Shown here: one piece after another, positions 12,247 through 50,820 of the stretch
Layout of the letters: each line of letters begins with the position of its first letter
Position numbering within the stretch: the first letter of the stretch is position 1
Assembly: GCA_965233585.1 (NCBI GenBank)
Contig: CBDDTI010000747.1
Location: 832,001-896,000 of the forward strand
Length of the DNA: 64,000 nucleotides
Direction: 5' to 3'
Source of the DNA: a bacterium
GTDB lineage: Bacteria > SAR324 > NAC60-12
Notes under the pieces: model-generated
What the model was told of the DNA's origin: nothing
Seen by the model: only the letters and a program-made list of their open reading frames with translations
Database searches by the model: none
Program-made: the position numbers and the translations under genes

Positions 12247-14441
12247 TTAGTCTTGAAACTCAATGCGGTAGATGTTTCTGTCCCCAAAGAGTCCTTGTGA
12301 GGCTTCAATATAAACAGTCGTGCCTGCCACTTGCAATGAAGTCCCTTTTGTCAAATGAGAGGCTAAGCCAATCGGGACAAAATCACTGGTCTTGGTTTTA
12401 AGCCACAGCGCATGAGAAGATGCTGTCAAGTCAGACACAAATAAGTAGCGATTGTTGGATTCAACTCTCATCACTCTGTTTGAGATACCAACCCGAGCCA
12501 ACTGTGATGTGTTTGGAATCTGTAAGTTTAAGGGCAACGAGTATAATCCACTATCTTTCGTCAAGTAGATTTTGTCGTCAAACGCAGTGGCATCTGATGG
12601 AATAGTTCCATTCACTGCATTTTTGGGAGTTTGGGTAGTTGCAAGTTGAAAACCTGACGTCCACAATTTGCCAGCTTTCTTTTGTAATGAACCAGCATCG
12701 CACCAACGACACTGGACGTGTCCAATAGCAACGGCTGAAGTGCCTGCAATTCGGTATAAATTTCTACCACTAAAATTAAAGCTAGGACTGGGGTTTCTCC
12801 ACCAACTGTATCCTGATACCTGATTCGCTATAAAATAGATGTTCCCATCAAAGAACGTCAAATTTCTAGCATTGCCGATAGCCTGAACAATGGATGAGTT
12901 GTTTGTAGAAGCCAACGCAGAAAATAGGTGACTTCCTGATGAGTCATGCTTAAAGACTGCTTTTTGCAAGTGTGCATTGACCACTCTTGTTGTCGTGGCA
13001 TAAATAATGTCACTACAACAGTAACGAGAAGCAGATGCTTTCACGTAGTAAGTGGTTGTTACCCCTGTTGGTGATATTCTTGTCGTTGTGGCATAAGTCA
13101 TCTCATCTCTGCCTGAAGGAGGACTGCTAGAGGCATGCACATAGTAAGTGGTTGGTCCTCTTGTTGTTGTGGCATAAGTGATGTCATTTCTTCCCCATGG
13201 GCGATGAGTAGATGCACGCACATAGTATGGGATATTGACAGGAGTGAAGGTGTCAGCAATGTAGTAGAGACTTTCACCACTGGTTGCCAGTTCTTTGGCA
13301 GGGATAGACTCGCCAGAATCTTTCACTTCTTTCAACGTTTTGCTATTCACTGTGTAGTGATAAGTTTTAGTAGATGTATCAGCGGATGCAAGACTAGCAT
13401 TTGAAGTAAAATAGAAGCCGTCATTTTGGAGAGTCCCTGAATTGTCTTTGAGGCTATCTGTGATAGACCAATCGTTTAAACCTTTGAAAACGTTTTGAGT
13501 GTCTAAAAGAGCTTTCTGACCACTTTTGAGTTCATAAAGTTCTCCTTGATTCCTCAATGTAACTAACAGCTTGTCCACAGAGGAAAACATATGGTCATAA
13601 ACAGAAGAACTAGATGATAGTTTCAGACTCAAATTGACCGATGATAGTTTCAGACTCAAATTGACTTCTGAAGCAGAGTTGTTCTTGGTGTCATCATAAT
13701 ATAATTTTTGATTGGCATAAAAGTATGGTGCAAACCGAAGAATGCTAAACCCTGGTAATGGTGTAGAAGACATTTGGAGATTTGGGATGTTCACTTTTAG
13801 AATTTTCGTGATGGTGTAGGTTGTGCCTAAAACCAAACCTGTATTGGGATCCTTAGTTTGTAAATGACCTATGACTATTTGTCCAGCATCTCCCTTATCG
13901 CCCTTTTCCCCTTTTTGTCCAGCATCTCCCTTATCGCCCTTTTCCCCTTTTTGTCCAGCATCTCCTTTTGTTCCATGGCAAACGTATTCTGTGCTGACGT
14001 GTTCCTCTCCTTCTAGCTTACCATTTTTGTCATAATCAAAGCCTATTTTAATCTCTAACCCTCCATTTGGACAACCATGTTGATTGCCTGTAAATGCAGT
14101 CTTCACAACAAGGGTTGATGCACCTGATAAGTTTTGGATTTCTTCCTCTTCTTCTTGAGGTTCTTGAGGTTTTGCTTCTTCTTCTTGAGAAGATGCGGGA
14201 GGTTTTGCCTCACCACAAGCAGAAAGCACAAAAACTGCCAGTGGAATGAGAAAGACCTTGAAAAAATGAGTTTTGAGTAGATGAGGAGAATTTTTTAAGA
14301 AAAAGCAAAAAACTTGTAATTTTTGTCTTGACTTTTGAAAAAGTCGGTTTATACTATTTGCGGATTTGCGGATTTGCGGATTTGCGGATTTGCGGATTTG
14401 CGGATTTGCGGATTTGCGGATTTGCGGATTTGCGGATTCAT
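12247..14441 (-). CDS. Surface lipoprotein with collagen-like Gly-X-Y repeats; probable ATG at 14441 is out of frame because of the 8-bp repeat tract
   Basis: In-frame h-region plus lipobox (FFKVFLIPLAVFVLSA-C) lies upstream of the called GTG at 14229; CPNGG..GFDYDKNGKL..YVCHG module; GQKGEKGDKGDA repeats; beta-rich C-terminus. Confidence 0.7.
13879..13966 (-). repeat. 36-bp tandem repeat encoding the collagen-like segment
   Basis: TTGTCCAGCATCTCCCTTATCGCCCTTTTCCCCTTT occurs twice plus a partial copy. Confidence 0.85.
14356..14438. repeat. Simple sequence repeat (ATTTGCGG)x10 plus ATT
   Basis: Ten perfect 8-bp units counted at 14356-14435. Confidence 0.98.
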
Positions 14442-14474
14442 AGCGTCACCATTTGTCAAAAAAATCAATTAATC

Positions 14475-14512
14475 AAGAAAGAAGCTACTGGAAGGCTAAC
14501 ATCTCCAGTAGC
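14475..14512 (-). terminator. Rho-independent terminator of the 14541-15806 gene
   Basis: GCTACTGGA (14484-14492)/TCCAGTAGC (14504-14512) stem followed by TTCTTTCTT on the minus strand. Confidence 0.75.
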
Positions 14513-50199: not shown

Positions 50200-50820
50200 T
50201 CAAAAAAAAGATTTGAAGAGAGGAAAGGCTTGCAACGCAAAAAGAGACACAAGCAGCCATTTAAGCCATTTTTGGTTGACTTTGATTTCTTGGAGATCAC
50301 TTTTAGTGGCAAAATTTTTTAGATCATCTTTAGTGGCAAAATTTTTTAGATCATCTTTAGTGGCGAAGTTCTTCAGGTCATCTTTAGTGGCGAAATTTTT
50401 CAGTTCATCTTTGATTTCTTTAAAATCGTCTTTAGTAGCGAAGTTTTTCTGTTCATCTCTGAGTTCCTTAAGGTCATCTTTGATTTCTTTAAAATCGTCT
50501 TTAGTAGCGAAGTTTTTCTGTTCATCTCTGAGTTCCTTAAGGTCATCTTTGATTTCTTTAAAATCATCTTTAGTGGCGAAGTTCTTCAGTTCATCTCTGA
50601 GTTCCTTAAAGTCATCTTTAATTTCTTTAAAATCATCTTTGATTTCTTGAAGGTCATCTCTAGTGGCTAGTTCACTTTTAAAGTCAACTTTGATGAGCTT
50701 GGTTTCTTTTTCTAAAATTTCACTAAAGAACTCGGTATGAGCCTCTGTTAAACCTTCTGCTTGCTGTTCTGTAAAACCACTGGAGACCAGTTTTTTATAA
50801 AATCCGTGAGGGGACTGCAT
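50200..50820 (-). CDS. DUF1640/Bdr-like coiled-coil tandem-repeat protein with C-terminal membrane anchor
   Basis: LVSSGFTEQQAE N-terminus, FATKDD repeats, LKWLLVSLFAL tail. Confidence 0.75.
   Translation of the reverse strand: MQSPHGFYKKLVSSGFTEQQAEGLTEAHTEFFSEILEKETKLIKVDFKSELATRDDLQEIKDDFKEIKDDFKELRDELKNFATKDDFKEIKDDLKELRDEQKNFATKDDFKEIKDDLKELRDEQKNFATKDDFKEIKDELKNFATKDDLKNFATKDDLKNFATKDDLKNFATKSDLQEIKVNQKWLKWLLVSLFALQAFPLFKSFF
50290..50668 (-). repeat. Nested 21/27/69-bp coding tandem repeats
   Basis: KNFATKDDL (27 bp) tandem copies; 69-bp unit KNFATKDDFKEIKDDLKELRDEQ repeated exactly. Confidence 0.9.

Follow-up and report, generated by a model that had tools for sequence, protein, structure and literature searches.

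A candidate octanucleotide-repeat switch at the start of a lipoprotein gene in an uncultured SAR324-type bacterium

The locus analysed here lies on the minus strand of a 64,000-nucleotide stretch of bacterial DNA, referred to below as the window, which spans 832001-896000 of contig C747, and comprises a start codon, a perfect octanucleotide tract, a long leader with a lipobox and an intact open reading frame (ORF) for a mature protein (Table 1). It is flanked upstream by a Kelch lipoprotein gene, which ends with a stop codon at 14543-14541 (minus strand), and downstream by genes encoding MlaE and an S13 D-Ala-D-Ala carboxypeptidase; a divergent ABC exporter is also found in the neighbourhood. 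The best named matches of MlaE belong to SAR324 cluster bacteria (74% and 64% identity). Elsewhere in the window, at 50294-50694, a nested tandem array with periods of 21, 27, 48, 69 and 138 bp was observed, in which the 69-bp unit is present 3.4 times at 96%.

Pfam searches with the mature protein identified DUF7151 at about 14103-13978 (34.6 bits, cut-off 27.2) and, at about 13974-13882, a collagen-like Gly-X-Y stretch, which with 24.3 bits scored below the cut-off of 27.2 and in which eleven triplets can be counted by eye; the C-terminal 500 or so residues matched no Pfam family. The nearest Atlas clusters of the mature protein carry DUF7151 with or without collagen, and in a search of 5.8 billion proteins it matched, besides itself, others only in the collagen-like stretch. 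An AlphaFold model based on a two-row alignment gave no usable fold (mean pLDDT 28.7). In-frame tandem repeats were observed inside the gene at 13878-13965 (36 bp, 2.4 copies, 100%, the collagen-like Gly-X-Y stretch), 13613-13665 (27 bp, 2 copies, 100%) and 13078-13227 (81 bp, 1.9 copies, 78%), which could change the length of the protein without a change of frame.

The 47-codon leader ends in KTHFFK VFLIPLAVFV LSAC, i.e. in basic residues, a hydrophobic stretch and a lipobox. This conforms to the general pattern of lipoproteins, in which the lipobox [LVI][ASTVI][GAS]C is preceded by hydrophobic and basic residues. Genes for Lgt (PF01790, 181.9 bits, contig C745) and for signal peptidase II, LspA (PF01252, 120.2 bits, contig C729), are present in the genome. 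The product may be located at the cell surface.

The ATG is preceded by a Shine-Dalgarno-like GGTGA, which we take to be complementary to the 3' end of the 16S rRNA, and is followed by AAT and the repeat tract, which Tandem Repeats Finder delimits at 14356-14438 with a period of 8, 10.4 copies and 100% matches. The tract has no stop codon in any sense frame and would encode PQIRKSAN repeats. Within the window its two-unit word was counted nine times, every time inside the tract, and not once in 100 dinucleotide-preserving shuffles, which rules out a chance origin; the tract is a real feature. Tracts capable of slippage have been defined as those with at least three units where the unit is at least 4 nt long (PMC7383803), and here ten perfect units of 8 nt, a length that is not divisible by three, are located inside an ORF.

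At ten units, the ATG frame reads MN(PQIRKSAN)3PQIV and is then closed by TAA after 30 codons; no stop codon interrupts the lipoprotein frame between 14445 and the end of the lipobox LSAC, tract and leader included. The first ATG, GTG or TTG in the lipoprotein frame is the GTG at 14229, which is positioned four codons ahead of the Cys codon and opens an ORF of 660 codons (12247..14229, minus strand). Since this GTG is the only canonical start behind the tract, a product initiated there would be devoid of a signal peptide; of near-cognate codons, ATA, ATT and CTG are present behind the tract, none of them accompanied by a Shine-Dalgarno sequence. The public gene call for this gene (P0002) begins at the very same GTG, and as gene callers start these genes there, both the signal peptide and the putative switch are lost from the annotation, which makes the choice of start codon matter. 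The distance from ATG to GTG is 212 nt (14441-14229), so that the ATG and the body would share a frame at 9 or 12 units; this is the case at one unit number in three, and both other frames end early. Equivalent TAG/TAA stops are found in the paralogues within ATCTATATAGGCTAA. The initial annotation had described the same arrangement (ATG at 14441, AAT, ten units, TAA at 14351-14349, lipoprotein frame open from 14445), and all of these coordinates and counts were correct when checked against the sequence. A start-codon scan bore out its statement that the lipoprotein frame holds no ATG, GTG or TTG before 14229, and the frame arithmetic confirmed the 212-nt distance and the restoration of the frame at 9 or 12 copies.

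Table 1 Features of the octamer locus and of related repeat loci. Positions without a contig name are those of the window.
Feature	Position	Strand	Description
Hairpin GCTACTGGA-N11-TCCAGTAGC and T-rich run	14484..14512	minus	between Kelch lipoprotein gene and ATG
Shine-Dalgarno-like GGTGA	14446..14450	minus	4 nt ahead of ATG; sequence reading
ATG start codon of the putatively switchable gene	14439..14441	minus	homologous ATG in paralogue L026 opens 464-codon ORF
AAT and (CCGCAAAT)x10, perfect tract	14356..14438	minus	AAT, 14438-14436; ten units, 14435-14356
Stops closing both wrong frames	14349..14356	minus	TAA 14351-14349 acts at 10 units; TAG 14356-14354 would act at 11
47-codon leader SINRLFQKSRQK...VFLIPLAVFVLSAC	14215..14355	minus	lipobox LSAC, 14226-14215; Cys codon, 14217-14215
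Mature protein	12247..14214	minus	655 codons and stop; ORF intact
Octamer locus, repeat units	14356-14435 (window, on C747)		10 units, 8-nt variant
L021	C295:101577		17 units, ATCCGCA
L022	C745:167236		9 units, ATCCGCA
L023	C746:71141		18 units, ATCCGCA
L024	C746:488283		24 units, ATCCGCA
L025	C747:156519		8 units, ATCCGCA
L026	C746:304809		two units
L027	C745:217349		two units
G9 copies	C747:432718, 434463, 437002, 987134, 990576; C745:319800		poly-G family

The hairpin upstream of the ATG lies at least 26 nt behind the stop of the upstream gene, and its predicted fold (-19.1 kcal/mol, z -1.4) is not unusual. At the aligned place in L022, L023, L026 and L027, GCTATTT-N13-AAATAGC followed by TCTTTTTAT was observed, which by eye looks like compensatory change; RNAalifold gave no consensus support for this 5' hairpin in the paralogues. 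A consensus promoter scan from the upstream gene to the ATG identified no promoter, the only match on the coding strand (9/12) being located inside the end of the upstream gene, and the same scans at L026 and L022 revealed none near the ATG on the coding strand. A TTGCAT-17-TACAAT pair, below the threshold of the scan, was seen by eye in four paralogues. On the plus strand, an antisense promoter-like TTGACT-16-TATACT (10/12) at window 14328-14355 lies inside an invariant 25-nt block of the leader and is directed into the tract; its second hexamer is, by eye, missing in the paralogues.

The tract is not the only one of its kind in this genome. The assembly (12 Mb, 747 contigs) is mixed, and its small contigs carry eukaryote-type repeats; a (TTTAGGG)x26 array is located near a contig end (C13:53029-53210) and small contigs are rich in long microsatellites, in line with eukaryote-like DNA beside the bacterium. 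We scanned the five largest bacterial contigs (2.92 Mb, about 40% G+C) for perfect simple sequence repeats with at least four units and at least 24 nt, which yielded 13 repeats, six of them consisting of ATCCGCA or its octamer variant. All six loci are organised alike: the ATG is separated by a few codons from the tract, and behind the tract come a short segment that stops both wrong frames and a conserved leader (type LYRLNQLFQKSRQK...FFVKKF.HLLK.HFFKLFLIPLTIFVISAC), which comprises about 47 codons and ends in a lipobox or a signal-peptide cleavage site. Searching with the leader added the two-unit loci L026 and L027 as well as the repeat-free L028, L029, L030 and two genes on C729. The unit numbers found at these loci besides the ten of the octamer locus (2, 2, 8, 9, 17, 18 and 24) are those of paralogues, not of alleles.

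The open frames behind the tracts of L022, L023, L024, L025 and the octamer locus are intact (391-896 codons), and the encoded bodies gave DUF7151, Kelch or weak barrel matches in Pfam. From the respective ATG, the ORF extends over 30 codons at the octamer locus and over 29, 48, 62 and 25 codons at L022, L023, L024 and L025, i.e. all five are off. The frame is kept at the two-unit locus L026, where the homologous ATG opens 464 codons, in agreement with the public gene call (P0036). At L021 (C295:100577-103700; 17 units), 416 codons can be read from the ATG, and a 1-nt deletion shifts the hydrophobic segment and the lipobox out of frame; this deletion also creates an internal ATG (MEILCVFVKKF...FAC), the ORF of which ends nine codons past the Cys. 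L027 is truncated.

About 612 nt of tract across the six loci are perfectly periodic; the adjoining leader DNA is 74-87% identical between paralogues, and five loci have a block of 25 nt within it in common at 100% identity. The octamer differs by one base from the heptamer unit of the family. As the closest paralogue of the octamer gene (L023, 50% identity over 365 residues) carries the heptamer, we conclude that the octamer is derived. It would most likely have arisen from the family heptamer via one extra A and then have spread through the whole array; the uniformity of the array for the variant unit can be read as a trace of repeated slippage.

Over 44 codons the five leaders show no indels, and their differences are distributed over the codon positions in the order 3 > 1 > 2 (positions 3/1/2: octamer locus versus L023, 14/8/4; versus L024, 16/10/3; L023 versus L024, 9/7/2). 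When the leaders were scanned for starts, that of L022 was devoid of a canonical start and that of L023 of a canonical or near-cognate one; the sole canonical start in the leaders of L024 and the octamer locus is the GTG four codons before the Cys. In the repeat-free L028, L029 and the two C729 genes, the ATGs are located behind AGGAG-type sites, 40-62 residues before the Cys. Since the leaders of these repeat-free relatives are equally long, a long leader is normal in this organism. Taken together, the L026 ORF, the long-leader relatives, the codon-position bias, the want of a usable downstream start, the intact bodies and the presence of the Lgt and LspA genes indicate that the path from the ATG through the tract into the leader is a real coding path.

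We consider it probable that the octamer tract is a translational phase-variation switch of the opa type, which operates by slippage and is currently OFF. The presence of such a repeat at that spot in at least six genes of the genome makes a slippage-driven on/off switch likely, and because the intact bodies have no start of their own, the genes are likely to be read at some unit numbers. This reading is also favoured by the perfect periodicity of the tracts beside diverged leaders, by an outside protein with a leader of this type behind a repeat and by a poly-G lipoprotein family in the genome, both of which are described below. Intact bodies behind the tracts are not expected for dead genes in DNA of about 40% G+C. 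The initial annotation had likewise proposed a phase-variable lipoprotein, and what it had based this on, i.e. a tract in the 5' coding part, an out-of-frame state in the assembly and a layout suited to slipped-strand mispairing, stands; the kinship of the octamer with the genome-wide heptamer family, however, had been missed. The antigenic or phage-receptor variation that it had suggested would be a candidate role. Under the proposed mechanism, units would be gained or lost by replication slippage at a rate that is useful in living cells, turning the gene on (at 9 or 12 units) and off. ON cells would make a protein consisting of Met-Asn, three or four PQIRKSAN repeats and the leader, followed by the lipid-anchored DUF7151/collagen-like protein, with Lgt and LspA processing the precursor. 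The variation might serve a change of the envelope towards host, phages or grazers. Some observations count against a switch. The octamer locus and four of the five long-tract sisters are out of frame, for which the chance is about 0.1-0.3 under random switching; the invariance of 25 nt within the leader might reflect constraint on the nucleotide sequence rather than on the protein; no consensus promoter was recognised between the upstream gene and the ATG; and none of 40 related genomes held a tract.

Among the alternatives, the tract might be a frozen relic, i.e. the leftover of an expansion in a gene that was switched off by a change in tract length and is now a young pseudogene, with no meaningful switching. 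The out-of-frame state of the octamer gene and the unrecognised promoter would fit this scenario, as would the existence of decayed family members, namely the truncated L027 and L021 with its shifted signal segment. However, the body of 655 codons is intact in DNA of about 41-43% G+C, as are those of four sister loci, and the tract contains no impure unit, compared to a divergence of 13-26% in the flanks of the paralogues. We consider this explanation unlikely.

Alternatively, the tract could act at the level of DNA or RNA, as a short upstream ORF, a spacer or a binding element, with the lipoprotein starting elsewhere, e.g. at a non-canonical codon. The invariance of the 25-nt block in five loci is compatible with such a role, and short tracts of the heptamer, often accompanied by an inverted set, are found in numerous further phyla, so that the unit may have a sequence-specific property (see below). 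This explanation nevertheless appears improbable to us, because the starts that it could use behind the tract are the GTG, which would leave the product without a signal peptide, and ATA, ATT and CTG codons without a Shine-Dalgarno sequence, because the L023 leader offers no start of either kind, and because the reading from ATG to leader is a real ORF in L026.

The number of units could also have been miscounted in the assembly, the true tract having 9 or 12 units and the gene simply being on in the sampled population. Repeats beyond the word length of an assembler are hard to size. The locus was found in four public runs from one study and two samples, with no RNA run listed among them; the Logan contigs of these runs are built from 31-letter words and end 30 nt into the tract from both sides; none of the four runs has a contig that bridges the tract, and at 3-6x the depth of pure-repeat words relative to the flanks is too noisy for sizing. 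The ten units are, however, cleanly assembled inside a 1.07-Mb contig, and the four sister loci would need independent miscounts. We regard a miscount as very unlikely, and even if it had occurred, the locus would qualify as a repeat switch all the same. A promoter-located repeat switch of the hmwA type can be rejected, as the tract starts 3 nt behind an ATG that is supported by a Shine-Dalgarno sequence and the homolog of which in L026 heads a long ORF.

Outside this genome, the arrangement was hardly encountered. The 40 related genomes mentioned above were searched for at least four heptamer units; a leader profile gave two weak matches in 87 other genomes of the phylum, both in the hydrophobic part only. 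In G008, the nearest relative with mlaE (81% identical), unrelated genes are located upstream of mlaE, so that there is no orthologous locus. A 25-mer scan of JGI metagenomes gave no match, and a leader-peptide scan of them gave 594 pattern matches, none of which was confirmed; the L026 leader retrieved only itself from 5.8 billion proteins. The leader profile matched six of 1.84 billion representative proteins, four of which (P0157, P0158, P0160 and P0162) match repeat-free or short-repeat members of this very genome, and one of which (P0159) is a long tandem-repeat protein that looks unrelated. The remaining match (P0161), a 294-residue protein from another assembly, has (NPKSEIR)n directly before YYRLNWLFQKSRQK...ISAC. 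As (NPKSEIR)n is the three-frame reading of (AATCCGA)n, P0161 presumably carries a third variant of the unit, its DNA being deduced from the peptide.

The heptamer itself is more widespread. At least 120 stretches with at least three ATCCGCA units were observed in Acidobacteriota, Planctomycetota, Verrucomicrobiota, Chloroflexota, Gemmatimonadota and Saprospiraceae, compared to our own estimate of about 0.3 for the chance expectation of a 21-mer in 596 Gb. Among the stretches listed, 109 of 120 have three or four units, the longest having 11, and in 33 of 118 an inverted set of the heptamer lies no more than 200 nt away, an arrangement that would give long hairpins; the sister units GATTTCG and AATTACG occur near ATCCGCA stretches. 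This recurrence across many phyla hints at a sequence-specific way of expanding. To our knowledge, cross-phylum ATCCGCA tracts have not been described; the heptamer STRR repeats of cyanobacteria represent a parallel.

A second family of repeat-bearing genes was found on the large contigs, where in six copies G9 separates an ATG (MLEQIKSIQ...) from the signal of a lipoprotein (FYDK..LTLLVLAGC). The frame is kept over 408-454 codons in four of these copies and lost in the other two. The poly-G family resembles the octamer locus in that a slippery tract separates the start codon from the export signal of a lipoprotein and in that in-frame and out-of-frame copies are mixed, but it differs in the mononucleotide tract, the leader and the protein family. 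In the contigs of the public runs on three poly-G genes, three runs showed 1-nt gaps at and near one G9 tract; paralogous contigs accumulate at this place, where alleles and paralogues are indistinguishable, and the gaps are not counted as evidence of switching. In addition, (GTCGGAA)x15 was observed at C295:240617-240721 inside a class-I SAM-methyltransferase-like ORF. Just upstream of it is an EYGCGLG motif, which we presume to be of the class-I SAM-methyltransferase type; the N-terminal frame passes through the tract and stops 21 codons on, and the expected continuation is found in other frames. This ORF may represent another type of gene switched by a repeat, or it may be broken.

More tentatively, the octamer locus may be one copy of a portable switch cassette, consisting of a conserved upstream block, the ATG, an AATCCGC-type repeat, the stops in both wrong frames and the 47-codon leader. 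In this view, an uncultured SAR324-type bacterium, represented in a mixed assembly that is host-associated, would have placed the cassette before six or more envelope genes that are unrelated to one another and encode lipoproteins of the DUF7151/collagen-like, Kelch and SBBP propeller types and a barrel-like outer-membrane protein. It is conceivable that, together with the poly-G family, such cassettes provide a non-pathogen with a combinatorial, randomly switching coat, and that the unit evolves by array turnover (AATCCGC, AAATCCGC, and AATCCGA in the outside relative). If this holds true, the whole set, i.e. two cassette families with different repeat types that are both located between start codon and export signal, would reflect strong, fluctuating, surface-directed selection by host, phages or grazers that is met by bet-hedging. 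With units of 7 nt in one paralogue and 8 nt in another, the family also provides a clear example of array turnover. In the literature collection that was searched, no paper joined SAR324 with phase variation. Most known contingency loci come from host-restricted pathogens, and coats of this kind have so far been studied in Neisseria, Haemophilus and mycoplasmas.

In kind the putative switch is a known one, found here in a new lineage and with rare 7- and 8-base units on a shared cassette. The mycoplasma Vlp proteins are switched by poly-A tracts in the promoter. The Vpma proteins switch by site-specific recombination (PMC2268961, PMC5634654). With Vlp and Vpma, the present loci share a common 5' region and a lipoprotein signal before divergent mature parts, together forming a switchable repertoire, but the frame-shifting repeat is located behind the start codon and takes the place of promoter poly-A or recombination. 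An enrichment of repeats near N-termini is regarded as a sign of phase variation (PMC3315296). In Haemophilus influenzae, the adhesin genes hmw1A and hmw2A have 7-bp repeats in NTHi and the 8-bp repeat GCATCATC in biogroup aegyptius; these tracts of 12-38 copies belong to the promoter region, 70-210 bp upstream, and modulate the strength of expression (PMC2651432, PMC3309571). Hepta- and octanucleotide units at homologous loci (in different lineages for hmwA) and long tracts are common to both systems, whereas the tract described here is located inside an ORF and would act via the reading frame, not from the promoter. The nearest likeness is to opa of Neisseria, in which CTCTT repeats are located in the coding sequence of the leader peptide and about 11 copies of the gene are present per gonococcus (PMC3745409). 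In both systems, repeats with a unit length not divisible by three are located among the leader-peptide codons of several paralogous envelope-protein genes, and the number of units sets the frame of the body. The units are of 7 and 8 nt here compared to 5 nt in opa, and the tract is located directly behind the start codon, where it would encode a hydrophilic extension before a very long leader. The products, finally, would be mostly lipobox lipoproteins and not Opa barrels, with one cassette preceding unrelated mature domains and the putative switch being read from the sequence.
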